DNA from: a virus
Lineage: Duplodnaviria > Caudoviricetes
IMG/VR virus record: IMGVR_UViG_3300027679_000366
Location: 21,854 to 85,853 of that record
Direction: 5' to 3' (one strand)
Length of the DNA: 64,000 nucleotides
Shown here: piece by piece, positions 979 to 48,907 of the stretch
How the letters are laid out: each line of letters opens with the position of its first letter
Numbering within the stretch: position 1 is the stretch's first letter
Position numbers and translations under genes: made by a program
Notes under the pieces: generated by a model
Database searches by the model: none
Seen by the model: the letters and a program-made list of their open reading frames with translations, nothing else
Told to the model about the DNA's origin: nothing

Positions 979-1045
979 GATAAATAAATTTGTAGTGCGC
1001 CGTAAGGGCCTACATATTCTTGCTTAATTAAAGGAGAACAATATG
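979..1045 (+). promoter_or_regulatory. TAAATA promoter plus ROSE-like structured 5' UTR of dnaK (copy A)
   Basis: GATAAATA 979-986; hairpin 991-1014; TTCTTGCTT (1017-1025) pairs with AAGGAGAA (1031-1038) leaving a bulged G. Confidence 0.7.
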
Positions 1046-2953
1046 AGCAAAATCATCGGTATCGATTTAGGTACAACAAATAGCTGTGTAGCAATCCTAG
1101 AAAACGGAGTTGCCAAAGTAATTGAAAATAGCGAAGGTGCTAGAACAACACCATCAATCGTGGCTTACACCAAAGGCGAGATTCTCGTTGGTGCTACAGC
1201 TAAACGACAAGCAGTAACAAACCCAAAAAATACAATCTACGCCAGCAAGCGCCTTATTGGCCGCAAGTTTAGCGAGAAAGAAGTACAGAAAGACATTGGT
1301 CTAATGCCTTACGGTATTGTCCAAGCAGACAACGGTGACGCATGGATTGAAGCCAATGGCGAGAAATTGGCTCCACAACAAGTGTCAGCTGAAGTACTTC
1401 GCAAAATGAAAAAGACTGCTGAAGACTATTTAGGTTATGAAGTAACGCAGGCAGTTATTACTGTACCAGCTTACTTTAACGACAGTCAGCGTCAAGCAAC
1501 CAAAGATGCAGGACGTATTGCCGGCTTGGAAGTACTGCGTATTATCAACGAACCAACTGCGGCCGCACTGGCATACGGTGTAGACAAACAAGACAAGAAG
1601 GATCGCAAGATTGCAGTATACGACTTGGGTGGTGGTACATTTGATATCAGTATTATTGAAATTGCCAACATTGACGGCGACAAACAAATTGAAGTGTTAT
1701 CAACAAACGGCGACACATTCCTTGGTGGTGAAGACTTCGATCAAGCCATTATGGATCATTTGGTTGCAGTTTTTAAGAAAGAGTCTGGCATTGACTTGAA
1801 GAAAGATATGCTTGCCCTACAACGTTTGAAAGACTCAGCTGAAAAGGCCAAGATTGAATTGTCCAGTGCGGCCAGTACAGATGTTAACTTGCCATACATC
1901 ACAGCAGACGCAAGTGGCCCTAAGCATTTGAACGTTAAATTAACTCGTGCTAAGTTTGAACAAATGGTCGAAGACTTGATTACTCGTTCAATTGAACCGT
2001 GTAAGACAGCCATGTCAGATGCTAATGTCACTGCCGCAGACATCGACGAAGTTATCCTTGTTGGTGGACAAACACGTATGCCCAAAGTACAAGAAGCAGT
2101 TGAGAAACTGTTTGGCAAGGCTCCACGCAAAGACGTTAACCCAGACGAAGCAGTGGCCGCTGGTGCCGCCATCCAGGGTGCTGTGTTGGCCGGCGACAAG
2201 ACAGATGTGCTGTTGCTAGACGTTACACCATTGAGTTTGGGTATTGAAACAATGGGTGGAGTGTTTACCAAAGTTATTCAAAAGAACACAACTATCCCAA
2301 CCAAAGCTAGCCAAACGTTCAGTACTGCTGAAGACAATCAACCAGCTGTAACTATCAAAGTTGGTCAAGGCGAACGTGAACTATTCAAGTTTAATAAGAT
2401 ACTGGGCGAATTCAATCTCGACGGCATTGCCCCAGCACCACGTGGCATGCCACAAGTTGAAGTTACCTTTGACATTGATGCCAATGGTATCATGCATATC
2501 AGTGCTAAAGATAAAGGCACTGGTAAGGAAAATAAGATTACAATCAAATCCGATAGCGGATTGACGGAAGCTGAAATCCAACGCATGGTACAAGAAGCTG
2601 AACAAAACGCAGAGTCTGATAAGAAAGCCAAAGAGCTCATTGAAGCACGTAATCAAGCTGATGGTGCCACACACAGCTTCAAGAAAGACTTTGAAGAAGT
2701 TAAAGAACAGTTGACTGAAGAAGAAAAGACAGCCGTTGAAACTGCACTTAAAGGTGTAGACGATGCAGTAGTTGGAGAAGATCCAGAAGCTATTCAAAAA
2801 TCAGTCCAAGCAGTTTTCGAAGCAGGCAAACCTGTATTTGAAAAGAAGCAGGCCGCTGAGGCCGCAAAGAGTGCCGCACCAGCTGACCAGCCTGCCGAAG
2901 GGCAAACAGTGGATGCGAGCTTCACAGAAGTTGACACACAGACAGCAAAGTAA
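1043..2953 (+). CDS. dnaK: Hsp70 chaperone DnaK, copy A
   Basis: [32 protein letters not shown] motifs; 636 aa. Confidence 0.98.
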
Positions 2954-13202: not shown

Positions 13203-13231
13203 ATTATATTACTTTTTTTCTGTAGAGTCAA
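13203..13231 (-). promoter_or_regulatory. sigma70 promoter for hsp20 copy B
   Basis: TTGACT-17 bp-TATAAT on minus strand. Confidence 0.8.
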
Positions 13232-15110
13232 CTTCTGTGAAGCTTGCATCTACTGTTTGTTCACCGGTTTGCGGAGCCTGTTGTTTGGCTTGCTCTGCGG
13301 CTTGTTTCTTTTCAAACACAGGAGTTGCTGATTCAAAAAGTGTCTGTACAGATTTTGTGATTGCTTCCACATCATCACCTGCATGGGCTGTGTCCATTGC
13401 TGTGAGTGCTTCTTCAATCTTACTCTTCTCTTCATCAGTTAATTGGTCTTTAACTTCGTCAAAGTCCTTTTGGAACTGATGACGTTGAGCATCGGCTTGA
13501 TTACGAGCTTCAATAAGCTCACGAGCCTTTTTATCAGACTCTGCATTTTCTTCAGCTTCACGAACCATACGTTCAATTTCAGCTTCAGTTAATCCAGAAT
13601 CAGATTTGATAGTAATCTTATTTTCTTTGCCAGTGTTTTTATCTTTGGCACTTACATTAAGAATACCGTTTGCGTCAATGTCTAGTGTAACTTCAATTTG
13701 CGGTGTGCCACGCGGTGCTGGAGCAATACCTTCTAAATTAAACTCACCTAACGATTTGTTGTACTTAAACAATTCACGTTCGCCCTGCGCCACTTTGATA
13801 GTAACTGCTGGCTGATTGTCGTCCGCTGTTGAAAATGTTTGACTATGCTTAGTTGGAATAGTTGTATTCTTTTTAATCAACTTGGTCATTACACCACCCA
13901 TTGTTTCAATACCTAGTGTCAATGGAGTAACGTCTAGTAATAGAACATCTGTCTTATCGCCAGCTAGCACAGCACCTTGTATGGCGGCGCCTGCGGCAAC
14001 TGCTTCGTCTGGATTAACATCCTTACGTGGTGCTTTACCAAAGAACTTTTCAACTGCTTCTTGTACTTTAGGCATACGTGTTTGGCCACCAACAAGAATA
14101 ATTTCGTCAATGTCAGCATTAGTAACACCTGCGTCTTTCATAGCAATTTTACATGGCTCAATTGAACGTTTGATTAATTCTTCAACCATTGATTCAAACT
14201 TAGCACGATTAATAGTTACATTCATGTGCTTGGGACCACTAGCATCTGCGGTAATGTATGGTAAGTTAACGGCTGTGCTAGTTGTGCTAGACAATTCAAT
14301 CTTAGCTTTTTCAGCGGATTCTTTCAAACGCTGTAGAGCCAACATGTCTTGTTTAAGATCAATGCCGTTATCTTTCTTAAATTCTGCAACTAGGTAATCC
14401 ATTAACACTTGGTCAAAGTCTTCACCGCCCAAGAATGTATCACCGTTTGTTGATAGTACTTCAATTTGTTTGTCGCCATCGATGTTGGCAATTTCAATAA
14501 TGGAGATATCAAATGTACCACCACCTAAGTCGTAAACTGCAATCTTGCGATCCTTCTTGTCTGTCTTATCAACCCCATAACTCAATGCCGCCGCTGTTGG
14601 CTCATTGATAATACGCAACACTTCTAAGCCAGCAATGCGTCCAGCATCTTTCGTTGCTTGACGTTGGCTATCATTAAAATATGCCGGAACAGTAATAACG
14701 GCTTGTGTTACTTCGTGGCCCAAATAGTCTTCAGCAGTCTTTTTCATTTTGCGAAGTACTTCAGCAGACACCTGTTGTGGTGCTAGCTTTTCGCCGTTAG
14801 CCTCAATCCACGCATCGCCATTGTCAGCCTTGACAATAGTATATGGCATTAAGTCTATATCTTTTTGTACTGCGGCTTCGTCAAACTTGCGACCAATAAG
14901 GCGCTTGCTGGCGTAGATTGTATTTTTGGGGTTTGTGACTGCTTGTCGTTTTGCTGTTGCACCTACTAGGATGTCGTCCTTTGTATATGCAATGATTGAT
15001 GGCGTTGTTCTTGCGCCCTCGCTGTTTTCAATTACTTTAGCAACTCCGTTTTCTAGGACTGCTACACAGCTATTTGTTGTACCTAAATCGATACCGATGA
15101 TTTTGCTCAT
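13209..15110 (-). CDS. dnaK: DnaK, copy B
   Basis: All Hsp70 signature motifs; 633 aa. Confidence 0.98.
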
Positions 15111-16729: not shown

Positions 16730-17030
16730 ATATCCTGCTTGCAAAGTATTCGATGTCTGATGGCCCATAGTCGTCAAACTTATGTGTACCATCTTGTATA
16801 GCTTTAATAAATCGATCTATCTCTAATTCCTGTGATGCATCTATACCTTCAAATCGATCTTTATCAAACTCTATGTAAAGACGATCCATTGGTTTGAATA
16901 TATCAACTGAACTTCGATCTTGTATTCTTGCCCAAAGTGTATCAGCACCTTGCTCGGCATTTTGTACGTATCCTATTACTCCCGTGTCTTCACTTGCAAC
17001 TGTCCGTCCGGGTTCTTGATCATGTAAGTC
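16689..17030 (-). CDS. -1 frame extension of the 401-aa membrane protein (no convincing own start)
   Basis: Open from slippery A_AAA_AAG (17036-17030) to stop at 16689: DLHDQEPG...GYVQNAEQ..TLWARI...MDRLYIEF. Confidence 0.6.
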   Translation of the reverse strand, partial: DLHDQEPGRTVASEDTGVIGYVQNAEQGADTLWARIQDRSSVDIFKPMDRLYIEFDKDRFEGIDASQELEIDRFIKAIQDGTHKFDDYGPSDIEYFASRIYELRKNNSNNTAG

Positions 17031-18181
17031 TTTTTTTTAGACTCGTCTTCCTGGCCCCATAGTTCAGCTAGTGAAATTGTTTTTGCCGGTGTATCGTTAG
17101 CAATAGGTAGTTGGGCATCGGCTTCTACTTTTAAAAGGTGTTCACCCCTATTAAGTTCAGCTTCAATTTTTTCAGCCTCAACTGCTTTCTCAGCTTCTTC
17201 TATCATTGTATTCCATTTTTCTAGCTCTGACTCTGTAGGTACTTCTTCTACAGGTTCCTCCGGCGCTGTTATATCACCTCCTAGTGCAGTCGACGGTGTT
17301 TCGCTTGGAACTTCTTCTGTGTGTGTTTGTTTAATTTCTGTGTTTGGTTCTTGAATAATAGGAGGAACAATGCCTACTATAGTATTATCTTTATCTACTA
17401 GTAATGCACCATCTTTAGATTCTTCTTTACGCCAGCCAAATGTCATTTGTGCGGCCAGCAACATGATAACTGCTAACGGATCAAATACAACAACAATCAT
17501 TATGATGATCCATGTTACTGCTTTTTCCAACATGTTTTCATCTGCGCCATGATCACCGTAGATGAATTTGGCAATGTATTTGATTGGTCCTACTTCAGCT
17601 TCTACTTTTCGAACTTCTGCGGCAATTGGAGAACGTTCTTCATTTAAGGCAACAATTGACTTTTGAGATTTAGCAATGTCAGCCTGTATTTGAGTTCTTT
17701 CTTTAGACTGTCGCTGACGCATAGCATTGGCATTAACAGCACCTTGATCTGTTTTACTACGAGCAATCGTTTCGTCAATCGTAGCATCCATTTGCTTGAG
17801 TGCTTTACGATTGGCTTCAATGTTTTCTCGTTCTGTTTTAATTTTTTCGTCGTATATGGCAATCTTACTTTGGACATCACCACTGACTAGATTTTGGTCG
17901 TTGTGTGCTTTGGAAAGGAATCCAAAAATACCCATACTAGTAATAAGCATGAGAATAGCCACTGCCAAAATCATGTAATACTTCATGTAAGCAGGAGCAC
18001 GTTCCCAATTGGCTTTAAGCCAGCTAGCACATACTAGTTTGCCAACCTCTAGGGCTGATCCCATTACAATGATAGGAATGACTGCCGCGGAAAAGATAGC
18101 AGTCAAACCTACTACAGAGTAGTAAATTGCGACTACAGAAATGGTGAGACCAGTAAGTAGTAATAACCAGGCTAAAATCAT
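16976..18181 (-). CDS. multi-TM membrane protein with long coiled coil
   Basis: 3 N-terminal TMs, coiled coil, EVGPIKYIA, VFDPLAV TM, acidic tail ending ESKKK. Confidence 0.7.
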   Translation of the reverse strand: MILAWLLLLTGLTISVVAIYYSVVGLTAIFSAAVIPIIVMGSALEVGKLVCASWLKANWERAPAYMKYYMILAVAILMLITSMGIFGFLSKAHNDQNLVSGDVQSKIAIYDEKIKTERENIEANRKALKQMDATIDETIARSKTDQGAVNANAMRQRQSKERTQIQADIAKSQKSIVALNEERSPIAAEVRKVEAEVGPIKYIAKFIYGDHGADENMLEKAVTWIIIMIVVVFDPLAVIMLLAAQMTFGWRKEESKDGALLVDKDNTIVGIVPPIIQEPNTEIKQTHTEEVPSETPSTALGGDITAPEEPVEEVPTESELEKWNTMIEEAEKAVEAEKIEAELNRGEHLLKVEADAQLPIANDTPAKTISLAELWGQEDESKKKTYMIKNPDGQLQVKTRE

Positions 18182-32275: not shown

Positions 32276-32304
32276 ATTTTACTACAAATAGCCCTATGTG
32301 TCAA
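32276..32304 (-). promoter_or_regulatory. sigma70 promoter giving a leaderless transcript
   Basis: TTGACA-17 bp-TAAAAT, ATG 6 nt downstream. Confidence 0.75.
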
Positions 32305-32311
32305 TTAGTTA

Positions 32312-32644
32312 TTAAGCCAAATCACCACGCTTAGTAGCACTCATAGCCATTTTGCTAACTTCACTTTGGCCAGCATCTTGCTGTTGGACAGGTTCATCCG
32401 TGTTAGCATCTGTCTTGAGCGTTAAGCCAACACCGTCAAACTTGTCTACTTTATTGTGCAATGTTTGTTGCTCGGGCGGAAGACTTGCTTCTTGTTCCCA
32501 TCGACGAGCAAACGTTCTATAAGAAATTGGGATGCCCATATTTCTAAGGGCAACCCAAGTCAGTTGTGATGCGGTACCTTGATTATCGGCTGCGCTTTGT
32601 GTTGTAAAAAGGAGCCTATCTAACGGTTCAATTGTTTCTATTAC
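32312..32644 (-). CDS. -1 frame extension of 32641..33654
   Basis: Open from A_AAA_AAG (32650-32644): VIETIEPLDRLLF...LRNMGIPISY...; no start codon in this frame upstream of the site. Confidence 0.65.
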   Translation of the reverse strand, partial: VIETIEPLDRLLFTTQSAADNQGTASQLTWVALRNMGIPISYRTFARRWEQEASLPPEQQTLHNKVDKFDGVGLTLKTDANTDEPVQQQDAGQSEVSKMAMSATKRGDLA

Positions 32645-33654
32645 TTTTTTTTTGAGTTGAGTAACATGCCTAAACGACGGCTGTAGTCTACCGACTCACG
32701 CTTTTCTCTGCCTGCTTCTGCCGACATTGGTGTTTCTTCGTCCATGCCTGGCTCACCGCCTGGTGCTGGTGGCATTGGTAGTTCTGGTAGTCCGCCTGCT
32801 GGTTCTTCGCCTGGCAACCCGCCCATTCCGCCTGCTGGTGTGCCCATTGTAGGAGCCTCACCACCTGATACAATTGCTAATGCGCTTGACAAGCCTTGAC
32901 GACTTGTTTCTAATGATGTATAAATTGCCTCTAGAGCCGGCTTAACTGAATCTTGGTAACGTTGTGCAACGTCACTGCCTTGGGTTTCTCTTATAGAGTC
33001 TAATAGTTCTAGTAGCTGTTCTGCTTTCATAGCCGCAACATCTTCTAGCCAGCCTGTAATACGGTCTACCATATCTTTAGTAGCCATAATAGTTTCAGCT
33101 TTAGTTTCTTCGCCTTCTAGTAGGATCCAACTTGCTTGTGCTTCATTTAGGTCATAACGTAATGACAGTTCTGCCTTAAGTTCTTCTGTATCTGATTCGC
33201 CTAATCTCATTCTGCTAAGTGCTGAGTCAATCCAGCTATCTGGCACTGCCGACTTTCGAGCACGGTGACGGATAAATGCTGTGATGTTGTTGCTTTCGTT
33301 TGTTTTTGCTTTAGTTTTCATAGGCTTTTCTTCTTTATCTTCCTCTTCGTCGCATTCACATGGGCTACAATCACACTCTGAACAAGTGCTTTCTGCTAAT
33401 TGATCACGCTCTAGGATAGCTTGGTTGATGCAATCTAGCATCAAACGTGTTTTTTGATATTGTGCGCTTTCAAGAACAGATTCATAGCTTTCTGATAGTT
33501 CCATTTGACTTAAACGTGTGCGCAACTTGTTACGTGCGTCTTCTAATTGTACATCGCTAAACTGCTCAAAGTTAATCTTATAGCCAAACTTCTGTGCTAG
33601 GCTTTCGTTAAGCTGTTTGCTTGTAATGGGTTTTGACAATTCTCTAATTTGCAT
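32641..33654 (-). CDS. putative prohead core/scaffold-like protein
   Basis: MQIREL tag, acidic coiled coils, P/G/E-rich linker, ends SKKK*. Confidence 0.5.
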   Translation of the reverse strand: MQIRELSKPITSKQLNESLAQKFGYKINFEQFSDVQLEDARNKLRTRLSQMELSESYESVLESAQYQKTRLMLDCINQAILERDQLAESTCSECDCSPCECDEEEDKEEKPMKTKAKTNESNNITAFIRHRARKSAVPDSWIDSALSRMRLGESDTEELKAELSLRYDLNEAQASWILLEGEETKAETIMATKDMVDRITGWLEDVAAMKAEQLLELLDSIRETQGSDVAQRYQDSVKPALEAIYTSLETSRQGLSSALAIVSGGEAPTMGTPAGGMGGLPGEEPAGGLPELPMPPAPGGEPGMDEETPMSAEAGREKRESVDYSRRLGMLLNSKKK

Positions 33655-47555: not shown

Positions 47556-48233
47556 TTATTTCAAGCCTTCAGTCACACTTTGTTTCTCTAAATGTTTTTT
47601 AACTTGTTGTAACTCTGATTGGTCTAAGTCATCCAAGTGCTCTTTGCCCGTTAATCGTTTGGTAAGACGAAGGAAACTGGGTTCATTATCCCATTTAACG
47701 CCCTTACGGTCTGCCAATTTGTGTATAGTGTTAGGTGTTATGCTTTCAGTTACATTATCTAAAAATGTACTGGCAAATTTCTTACACTTATCTCGTAATG
47801 ATGAATCTGTTGTTTCTAACAGAGTAAATTGTCTTGCGTCATCATCTTCTTTTTCTGTAGGATCTATATATCCACAGTAGACTTTCTTTACATTAGATTG
47901 ATTCACAACATTGGTACAACTTTCACCATAACGCTCATCCGTATGTGTTTGATCACAAGGACTCAGTGTAGTGATTATAATACTGCCGCTTGGAATTGAA
48001 CCATGTTGTTTCTCATATGCTTCCATGGCAGCACGTTCTGCATGAATTCTTTTTCCGTTGCTAGCAGGACGATTTAATCTAGCAACTAATTTGTTATTGG
48101 GATCTAACACAGCAGACGCAACCATACCATAATCTTTATTACTGGATTGTCCTTTTTCAACTAGGTCACAGAGTTTAGATAATATTGCATCTAACTTAGA
48201 ATAGTTGCTGATTTCAAAATCACTAGCTCTCAT
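47556..48233 (-). CDS. Zn-dependent nucleoside/nucleotide deaminase
   Basis: IHAE...TLSPC...C; N-terminus MRASDFE. Confidence 0.75.
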   Translation of the reverse strand: MRASDFEISNYSKLDAILSKLCDLVEKGQSSNKDYGMVASAVLDPNNKLVARLNRPASNGKRIHAERAAMEAYEKQHGSIPSGSIIITTLSPCDQTHTDERYGESCTNVVNQSNVKKVYCGYIDPTEKEDDDARQFTLLETTDSSLRDKCKKFASTFLDNVTESITPNTIHKLADRKGVKWDNEPSFLRLTKRLTGKEHLDDLDQSELQQVKKHLEKQSVTEGLK

Positions 48234-48907
48234 TTTTTCTTACCTGCACAATGCGCCTTTTGAGAGAATCCCTTAGGGCTAGCACAGTTGATTGAGCTCT
48301 TATACTTCTGTGTCCATTTTTCTTCTAGGGCGGCTTCATCTATTGCTTTCTTAAATCCTTTGCCCGGAACCCAACCAGCAATAGGTTTACATTTACAGGT
48401 ACCTGGTTTACAGCTACAGTTAGTCATACCACATTGTAGACAGCGTTTTTTTTCGCTTTCCGATACACTTTCGTTAGGTACACAGTTATTAACACGAACA
48501 CCGCCTTTGATCTTGGTGCCTTCTTTATGTTTACCCTTCCAGCATTTGGGATCCAGTCTCTGTTTCAATTCTGCAATGTGTGTTTCGCCTAACATGATTA
48601 ACTCTTGCATTTGTTCAATGCTTTCACAGTTCCAGCGGCGTAAGGCCAACGCTTTAGGAGTAGGCTTACCATTAGGCTTTTTCATAGGACCTTTGTTGCC
48701 GCCCATCCTAGCACAAAAACTCTTGCGGCGCTTGGCTGCTTTACTACCAGCTTTTAATTTACTAGGTTTGGTAGTAACAGCAGTTTTTAATTTGCTGCCT
48801 GGATTCTCTCTGCGATAAGCATTGACAGCTTTTTGACTTAGACCATCTGTCTTGTCTTTCTTGTTGACCTTGTTCCAGTCTTCGTTAAGTAATTCGGATA
48901 TTTTCAT
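48230..48907 (-). CDS. basic Cys-rich modular protein
   Basis: MKISELLNE; modules RRKSFCARM, CWKG...NNCV, CxxC..CxC...CxC, INC..PKGFSQKAHC. Confidence 0.6.
   Translation of the reverse strand: MKISELLNEDWNKVNKKDKTDGLSQKAVNAYRRENPGSKLKTAVTTKPSKLKAGSKAAKRRKSFCARMGGNKGPMKKPNGKPTPKALALRRWNCESIEQMQELIMLGETHIAELKQRLDPKCWKGKHKEGTKIKGGVRVNNCVPNESVSESEKKRCLQCGMTNCSCKPGTCKCKPIAGWVPGKGFKKAIDEAALEEKWTQKYKSSINCASPKGFSQKAHCAGKKK

Follow-up and report, generated by a model that had tools for sequence, protein, structure and literature searches.

A conserved A9 slip cassette predicts a -1 recoded long form of a helical protein in giant phages

How is a conserved reading frame expressed that has no start codon of its own nearby? 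This question is raised by the end of a gene for a 337-amino-acid (aa) protein in an uncultured giant lake phage. The gene lies on a stretch of 64,000 nucleotides (nt), hereafter called the window, which covers positions 21,854-85,853 of the IMG/VR record IMGVR_UViG_3300027679_000366 (Caudoviricetes). The complete record measures 85.9 kb and represents a 23%-complete fragment of a giant phage. Where the gene ends, an open reading frame (ORF) continues in the -1 frame for another 110 codons. A preliminary description of the locus had proposed that a slip at the last codons of the gene joins the two frames, so that a short and a long form of the protein are made at a fixed ratio. In the following we call the product of the 0 frame the N-part, the -1 frame the extension and the sequence at their junction the cassette. 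Comparison with related phages showed that cassette and extension are preserved almost without exception, and on these grounds programmed -1 recoding at this site is very probably real. We infer that the long form is made, and likewise its share and the route of slippage.

The minus strand at the site reads ...CTC AAC TCA AAA AAA AAG TAA TAG AAA..., with the run of nine A (A9) at 32645-32653, the G at 32644 and the 0-frame stop TAA at 32643-32641. In the -1 frame the sequence translates as ...KKKVIETIEPLDRLLF...SKMAMSATKRGDLA followed by two stop symbols, with 110 codons beyond the lysine codons. The predicted long form would have 337 + 110 = 447 aa, with the junction ...N-S-K-K-K-V-I-E-T..., continuing K-K-K-V-I-E-T-I-E-P-L.... 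The previous stop of the -1 frame is located 16 codons 5' of the site, and between this stop and the site ATG, GTG and TTG are absent (GTC GGT AGA CTA CAG CCG TCG TTT AGG CAT GTT ACT CAA CTC). The earliest start codon of the -1 frame is ATG 32539, 35 codons into the extension, and the letters preceding it (GGTTGCCCTTAGAAAT) contain no Shine-Dalgarno-like run. The site sequence, the length of the -1 frame, the start-free interval and the ATG lacking a Shine-Dalgarno sequence are all as the preliminary description had given them.

Two different slip signals are present in the cassette: a slippery heptamer of the type X_XXY_YYZ in phase with the 0 frame (A_AAA_AAG), and a homopolymer of about nine or more A or T (A9), as needed by transcriptional slippage sites. 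Runs of at least eight A are depleted in the window, with 4 matches at 3 sites versus 12.9 in shuffled sequences, and all 100 shuffles contained at least 4. In the whole record there are 5 such runs, 4 of which are the two copies of two candidate recoding sites. What stands above chance is the conservation of the cassette and of the -1 ORF in 79 of 80 related loci, not the A run itself.

The relatives were collected by scanning IMG/VR with the 337-aa protein, which yielded 80 loci with 55-71% identity in the best tblastn segment. After dropping sequences with at least 90% identity a non-redundant set of 46 sequences was obtained, whose fused products are 48-90% identical (median 59%) and whose extensions form the alignment termed A1. 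In 79 of the 80 loci the gene ends [T/C]CA AAA AAA AA[G/A/C] TAA and is followed by a homologous -1 ORF of 100-122 codons; the remaining locus, L079, ends at the contig edge before the site. A second copy of the gene on the same record (L003) also keeps the cassette. None of the 80 loci is fused in frame, and no conserved start for the extension was found among them, the first ATG, GTG or TTG appearing anywhere from codon 1 to codon 107. The preliminary description had left it to such a comparison whether the downstream domain is a separate gene with its own tag, a fusion in frame or a frameshifted ORF. In close relatives it is the frameshift that leads into the domain, in all loci that reach the site; in distant relatives it is a separate gene with its own tag, and an in-frame fusion occurs only in one protein cluster, P0121.

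Within the non-redundant set 14 of the 15 cassette positions hardly vary, although the fused products are only 48-90% identical. The first codon is TCA in 44 of 46 sequences and CCA in 2, both following lysine codons are AAA in 46 of 46, and the stop is TAA in 46 of 46. Only position 12 is variable (G in 40, C in 4, A in 2). Elsewhere in the same genes TCA accounts for 31% of the serine codons and AAA for 67.5% of the lysine codons, yet both are nearly invariant at the site, which indicates selection on the nucleotides of the run and not on the amino acids alone. Behind the site a conserved motif x-x-E-x-x-[DE]-P-L starts after 3 codons (alignment A1). From codon 3 of the -1 frame on, variation is confined to the third codon position, the first two being fixed, as seen in 25 loci sharing one register. 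For the extension 293 of 1035 pairs were usable, with a median ratio of nonsynonymous to synonymous substitution rates (dN/dS) of 0.41; for the N-part 479 of 1035 pairs gave a median of 0.245. These values show purifying selection on both parts. The coordinates of the locus are collected in Table 1.

Table 1. Features of the recoded gene and its surroundings (positions in the window)
Feature	Position	Strand	Remarks
0-frame gene, short form	32641..33654	minus	337 aa; ends ...LLNSKKK / ...RRLGMLLNSKKK (ORF list)
N-terminal motif M-Q-I-R-E-L ("tag")	33637..33654	minus	pattern M[KRQ..][ILVFM]x[EDQ][ILVFM]
Candidate recoding cassette TCA AAA AAA AAG TAA	32641..32655	minus	A9 run + in-phase heptamer A_AAA_AAG + adjoining 0-frame stop
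-1-frame extension	32312..32644	minus	110 codons + TAA (stop 32312-32314); no nearby start codon
Position matching the hairpin of relatives	32612..32629	minus	weak 5-pair stem only
Promoter-like TTGACA-17-TAAAAT bounding the unit	32276..32304	minus	11/12 matches; ends 6 nt before ATG 32269 (exonuclease)

Homopolymers are error-prone in sequencing, and the fused record P0121 exists, so that the locus could also be a miscalled single gene of 447 aa or a gene broken by a frameshift mutation. We therefore consulted independent data. The stretch is contained in 20 public sequencing runs, 4 of which were examined as assembled contigs (X12, a DNA run, and X5, X16 and X17, RNA-library runs). X12, which is not marked as a possible source of the record, contains a 728-nt contig of depth 77.5 that spans the site with A9 and without differences or gaps. 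A different run length that would turn both frames into one ORF is thus not what this independent DNA run reads. The contigs of X16 and X17 span the site with A9 as well. In X5 two contigs stop precisely where the run begins and ends, at 32653 and 32645, as would be expected of a length-variable run in an assembly graph. They were not counted as evidence, as they stem from one study of three, RNA libraries may contain DNA and contigs hide minority forms. Together with the same run length and in-frame TAA in 79 of 80 independent loci, with a cassette invariant among sequences about 59% identical and with an extension under purifying selection, this makes an artefact or decay hardly credible.

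Among longer proteins holding the extension only the cluster P0121 (445 aa) was found, and its junction ...N-S-K-K-K-V-S-E-T-I-D-P-L... is the one predicted for the long form. It could be a DNA variant with ten A (A10), an assembled A10 transcript or an error. Such rare in-frame records, to which L137 and L141 can be added from a second cassette of this genome at position 17030, would also be expected if replication slippage switched the genomes of a population between an A9 state, with the short form alone, and an A10 state, with the fused form alone. However, the same frame relation is present in all 81 sequences (79 related loci, the second copy L003 and the window) from many metagenomes, and the one DNA run, with a contig depth of about 77, shows a single A9 path. 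Moreover, one infecting genome could not make both forms under such a scheme, yet both parts are under selection. We consider DNA phase variation of this kind highly improbable.

The extension could alternatively be translated as a separate protein, from its own start in the -1 frame or by re-initiation after UAA, with no change of frame. Distant relatives do encode the domain as a gene by itself, complete with start codon, in Pseudomonas phage PA5oct a small gene begins at GTG directly past the TAA, and the G-TAA geometry found here is that of a 4-nt start/stop overlap. Against this, the codon overlapping the stop is GTA, CTA or ATA and never ATG, GTG or TTG. Among the loci the first start codon varies in place between codon 1 and codon 107, and most of these starts would remove the conserved E-x-x-[DE]-P-L helix; ATG 32539 of the window lacks a Shine-Dalgarno-like sequence, as described above. 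Independent initiation is in our view as improbable as phase variation, and -1 slippage at the cassette remains the preferred reading.

According to this reading most ribosomes would stop at the UAA and release the 337-aa helical protein, and a minority of the products would pass into the -1 frame and gain the conserved 110-residue domain. We prefer a ribosomal route, in which tRNA-Lys would slip back by one base on A_AAA_AAG, either in tandem or in the P site only, while the slowly decoded UAA occupies the A site. A downstream hairpin would assist in most related lineages, not in the window. Slippage of RNA polymerase on the same A9 would probably add A10 transcripts encoding an identical protein. 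Since both routes yield the same protein, both probably contribute. A review by Atkins and colleagues (PMC5009743) describes A_AAA_AAG as very shift-prone in Escherichia coli, far more than A_AAA_AAC or A_AAA_AAA. Our leaning towards the ribosome is based on the heptamer, as it is the common denominator of both cassettes in this genome, and whether the ribosome provides the larger share is an evenly balanced judgement.

The same product could instead arise mainly by transcriptional slippage, the host polymerase stuttering on A9 (template T9) and A10 transcripts giving the 447-aa protein. The preliminary description had assumed ribosomal frameshifting; its two forms of 337 and 447 aa, reached by a -1 shift at S-K-K-K, are supported by the conservation in relatives. 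Polymerase slippage on A9 is a candidate just as serious as the ribosomal one. The A9 run is the one element kept in all 81 sequences, even at the third base of the Ser/Pro codon, which is synonymous, and in the first lysine codon; the base following the run varies. Runs of nine A or T are described as efficient slippage sites of bacterial polymerase in vivo and are used in this way in Thermus thermophilus dnaX (PMC5009743). Furthermore neither the site in the window nor the one at 17030 has a hairpin, and rare assembled A10-type in-frame forms exist (P0121 here, L137 and L141 at 17030). Other observations do not fit a polymerase signal. Runs of eight A (A8) are poor slip sites for polymerase, and the 17030 site of the same genome has A8, as have 5 of the about 70 relatives examined for it. 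Both cassettes share the codon phase, which polymerase slippage would not require, and a hairpin, apparently selected in most lineages, would have no role in it. The RNA-library contigs of X16 and X17 show plain A9; contigs hide minority forms and therefore only cap A10 transcripts below the majority. As the main source of the long form, transcriptional slippage seems to us possible and by no means remote, if somewhat less probable than not.

The RNA structure downstream of the site in relatives may also point to a ribosomal component. Of the 46 non-redundant relatives, 34 have a predicted hairpin past the site with an energy of -10 kcal/mol or stronger; it starts at a median of 14 nt after AAG and is typically formed as ...GTAGACCCCTTAGT-loop-ACTAAGGGCTCTAC.... 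Codons that build the hairpin are rare elsewhere: proline is encoded by CCC in 29 of 46 sequences versus 8%, and arginine by AGG in 26 of 27 versus 3.8%. The named stem has 75.4% of its cells paired, a share that never exceeds 47.3% when the partner is slid, and its covariation score was reached by none of 500 shuffles. The mean folding energy of 50-nt segments is strongest 10-60 nt past the site, at -15.4 versus about -3 to -8 kcal/mol in the adjoining AT-rich stretches; a G+C-rich linker 110-240 nt upstream of the site folds at -12 to -14 kcal/mol.

Several results weigh against the ribosomal reading. The window's own copy has a best local hairpin of only -1.3 kcal/mol and its 117 nt from the site on fold no better than shuffles (z +0.79); the clade of the window has lost the hairpin. 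No folding peak was found downstream of the 17030 site either (folding energy). Frameshift stimulators are usually spaced 5-9 nt from the slip site. The spacer in the relatives, with a median of 14 nt and a range of 1-40, is longer and more variable than that. RNAalifold gave no single consensus structure for the 46 sequences, and the count of pairs changed on both sides was reached by 351 of 500 shuffles and is not above chance. Conservation covers all nine A, including synonymous positions that are not part of the heptamer, with the last base of the heptamer itself variable (the position 12 counts given above), a pattern that fits a polymerase signal better. Finally, the tRNA scan of the window detected no tRNA gene.

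The second cassette, TCT AAA AAA AAG (A8), is located at 17030-17041 near the end of a 401-aa gene (16976-18181, minus strand). It consists of the same heptamer A_AAA_AAG in the same codon phase as the first. Here the 0 frame continues for about 18 codons and the -1 frame for about 107-116. This type of cassette is conserved in about 70 of 80 related loci (L085-L164), mostly as TCA AAA AAA AAG; five loci besides the window have A8, and in L137 and L141 the run is A10 and the frames are fused. The parallel between both sites, which the preliminary description had drawn from the shared TCN AAA AAA AAG context, holds and extends to the relatives. A third A8 run of the window is located at 48446-48453 on the minus strand within the ORF 48230-48907 (GAA AAA AAA CGC, with A_AAA_AAA in phase). 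There the -1 frame closes after about 8 codons, and therefore a slip would only truncate the protein.

The elements of the cassette are known from other systems. E. coli dnaX has the same heptamer A_AAA_AAG in the same phase, read by tRNA-Lys, and likewise gives two products with a shared N-terminal part; a downstream hairpin is also predicted in most of the relatives studied here. In dnaX, however, the shift leads to the shorter product, whereas here it would lead to the longer one, the 0 frame stopping right after the site. The run is A6 in dnaX and A9 here, the window lacks the hairpin and the protein is unrelated. A reversed layout in which the shift gives the longer product is mentioned for dnaX of some other bacteria (PMC5009743). 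T. thermophilus dnaX has, like our locus, a run that is exactly nine long, and one gene yields two proteins at a set ratio there, as would be the case here. It differs in that its 0 frame encodes the full-length protein, the short form coming from slipped transcripts, and in that heterogeneity of the RNA has been shown there.

C-terminal extension by frameshifting outside the tail chaperones is described in the review for gene 10 of phages T7 and T3, for Lactobacillus phage A2 and for the Listeria phages A118, A500 and PSA. These cases (10A/10B in T7 and T3) resemble the present one in that a phage protein, here probably one of the virion, is extended C-terminally by a frameshift near its stop codon. 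The T7 slip site given there (G_GU..) differs from A_AAA_AAG, and in these phages it is major capsid or tail proteins that are extended, in many cases by Ig-like domains, whereas here a helical carrier would receive a small winged-helix-like domain. With lambda G/GT the locus shares a -1 shift near the end of a gene that gives a minor fused product. A tail assembly chaperone frameshift was nevertheless rejected: the neighbours are an exonuclease, a 738-aa protein and a ribonucleotide reductase and not tail tube or tape measure genes, and the protein shows no likeness to the chaperone family. In the literature on jumbo or huge phages and frameshifting no description of recoding in this protein family was found, and the word "frameshift" is absent from the available text of the PA5oct paper (PMC7318152). 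The kind of recoding is therefore known, as A_AAA_AAG, as A9 and as C-terminal extension of phage proteins, and the protein family is new for it.

The N-part is modelled by AlphaFold2 (AF2; mean predicted local distance difference test score, pLDDT, 75) as an all-helical protein with a long hairpin at residues 182-262, a disordered, Pro/Gly/Glu-rich linker at 264-318 and a terminal helix at 320-333. It belongs to a large family with 2740 homologues at E<=0.001, of which the 120 listed are all 285-346 aa long. The N-part matches phrog_14154, annotated "virion structural protein", with E 1.5e-7, and 43 of the 46 N-parts match the same profile (best E 7.4e-12). These matches cover only profile positions 37-122 of 771, which correspond to the helical hairpin, and do not extend over most of the profile. 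Pfam gave no match for the N-part, the extension or ten relatives, and Foldseek against the PDB gave none at E<=0.001 for the models of N-part and extension. A VIA structure search with the N-part returned generic helical hairpins only (Z<=9.7). BFVD gave uncharacterized phage proteins only, and the ESM Atlas only "hypothetical" viral clusters, with an unconfirmed lead to DUF3008 whose score, 0.83, falls short of the threshold set by the tool itself. Neither the region nor the protein had a megablast or tblastn match (E<=1e-5) among phages. The middle region of the N-part is variable: the window encodes a Cys-rich stretch C-x2-C-x-C-x2-C-x-C followed by an acidic run (about 33340-33385, minus strand; residues about 90-105 of the 337-aa protein), in the place of which some relatives carry an insertion of the D-K-D-G type.

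For the extension the AF2 model (mean pLDDT 72) predicts a small alpha/beta domain at residues 5-78 (block-mean pLDDT 80-90), followed by a disordered linker and, at the end, a helix (..VSKMAMSATK..). Structural matches to it are weak and nearly all of winged-helix type (VIA Z<=4.4, Foldseek E>=0.35). The profile of alignment A1 reached at best E 0.56 against PDB sequences. PHROGs contained nothing for the extension, and for its stand-alone relatives one marginal match (E 0.0074) of unassigned function. When 1.84 billion representatives were searched with the profile, 408 relatives came up at E<=0.001. The 150 listed are mostly fragments of 47-134 aa, the kind of piece that gene calling would produce from the -1 frame. 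Further removed are stand-alone proteins of about 113-119 aa opening with M-R-L-F-E-V or similar, that is with a tag-like M-[KR]-x-x-E-[FLV], and four longer proteins (261-771 aa) hold the domain at their N-terminus. Pfam gave no match for the stand-alone and longer relatives scanned. When aligned, the frameshift junction S-K-K-K-V-x-E overlies the M-R-x-x-E start of the stand-alone forms. Probably two adjacent genes with their own starts became one recoded unit once the second had lost its start.

Distant relatives of the gene were found by tblastn at low stringency with the N-part, which led to PA5oct and ten giant phages of E. coli (among them vB_Ec-M-J, an Asteriusvirus). In the window the 337-aa gene is followed by the extension, the exonuclease (assigned by phrog_298, E 4.8e-50), the 738-aa protein and the ribonucleotide reductase. 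The order in PA5oct is gp247 (395 aa), gp246 (104 aa), gp245, exonuclease, two genes and ribonucleotide reductase, and in vB_Ec-M-J it is EcMJ_379, EcMJ_380 (109 aa) and exonuclease, with the reductase further on. Besides this common gene order the small genes share size, a tag-like start and a similar C-terminal motif. They differ from the extension in having their own start codon and Shine-Dalgarno sequence and no A9 run: gp246 starts with GTG directly past the TAA of gp247, and EcMJ_380 starts 16 nt behind the end of EcMJ_379, which reads GTT AAA AAA TAA (K-K-stop, compared to K-K-K here). hhalign identifies gp247 as a remote homologue of the N-part, with a probability of 94% and E 1.4e-7. 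The likeness of gp246 and EcMJ_380 to the extension lies in position, size and C-terminal motif; with hhalign probabilities of 6-18% and 0.3-8%, respectively, against the extension profiles, homology is not established.

The preliminary description had called the carrier a scaffold-like head protein and a tagged prohead protein. Its N-terminal motif follows a pattern that opens about 17 ORFs of the 85.9-kb record, versus roughly one expected from a rough residue-frequency estimate, and that is far commoner at ORF starts than within proteins. The ORFs concerned include those starting in the window at 33654, 34344, 35108, 35811, 40635, 47554, 48907, 49541 and 53077; the 337-aa protein and four of its upstream neighbours are among the carriers. 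In phage T4 internal proteins are directed to the prohead by their first 10 residues, which the gp21 protease subsequently cleaves off behind the Glu of a short motif (PMC9026906). The tag may be seen as a counterpart of this capsid-targeting propeptide, although the T4 targeting sequence has 10 residues and M-Q-I-R-E-L comprises 5 up to its Glu. Two near-complete relatives (G001 and G002, records of 345 and 356 kb, 94-96% complete) contain one copy of the gene each and encode a T4-type prohead protease (Peptidase_S77, 92 bits) and a Gp23-type capsid protein (268-274 bits), both above the cut-offs; neither Peptidase_S77 nor Gp23 was found in the 23%-complete record itself. By the likeness of the tag and the T4-type protease of the relatives, "tagged prohead protein" is a fair hypothesis.

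In the PA5oct record, gp247 and gp246 carry the note ESI-MS/MS (electrospray ionization tandem mass spectrometry). For this phage 93 products are reported as linked to virions, 7 of them being "virion-unrelated enzymes" (PMC7318152), and because such enzymes are also part of the PA5oct proteome the note is suggestive and not proof. This reservation and the genes next to the locus, which encode the exonuclease, the ribonucleotide reductase and the chaperone DnaK, temper the case for a virion or head function. From the tag, the protease and capsid protein of the relatives, the phrog_14154 matches and the PA5oct note we regard such a role as plausible, and a link to the virion as probable.

A more specific scenario would connect the tag with the slip site. 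The lysine codons of the slip site and the following [VLI]-x-E would recreate the tag motif at the junction (K-K-V-I-E-T), so that the slip may have taken over the start and targeting tag of a formerly independent, capsid-targeted small protein. In that case the long form would act as a small polyprotein, whose helical carrier would bring along the winged-helix-like domain into the prohead in a proportion determined by the slip, and the T4-type prohead protease would cut after V-x-E, directly behind the slip site, freeing the domain for ejection with the DNA. By analogy to T4 this is conceivable, and we regard it as rather unlikely. The same A-run cassette occurs twice per genome, which would suggest dosing of packaged proteins throughout the lineage. 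If the long form were indeed a packaged cargo released by the protease, recoding would have a part in how T4-like giant phages dose the proteins they eject.

The recoding proposed here would affect the large family described above. Gene callers see the short form, or truncated pieces of the extension that begin at chance internal starts, and annotations of giant phages therefore miss a conserved isoform. The cassette represents a textbook ribosomal heptamer and a textbook polymerase slip run at once. It is found twice per genome, in versions that have or lack a hairpin and whose run is A8, A9 or A10, and this natural variation could help to separate the two slip mechanisms.

The unit is bounded by the promoter-like element listed in Table 1, and the second copy has TTGACA-17-TATAAT-6-ATG at the same place (L003, 3069-3097). 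In both copies the element leaves no room for a Shine-Dalgarno sequence, suggesting a leaderless transcript of the exonuclease. This second copy is part of a larger arrangement, as the record consists of two mirror-image arms (C1:1275-26869, plus strand, versus 32991-60153, minus strand) with 36-97% aa identity gene by gene around a unique centre of 6 kb. The arms measure about 26 kb and correspond to about 11138-38300 of the window and to sequence of the record that precedes the window, and both are transcribed towards the centre. They duplicate DnaK, ribonucleotide reductase, exonuclease and both recoding genes. Since the near-complete relatives are single-copy, the arms may be an inverted duplication or a chimeric assembly; under either view L003 is an independent homologue that keeps the cassette. 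The two DnaK (Hsp70) paralogues of the window (1043-2953, plus strand, and 13209-15110, minus strand; 636 and 633 aa) are 85% identical to each other, and both are 56-70% identical to DnaK matches in phage records.

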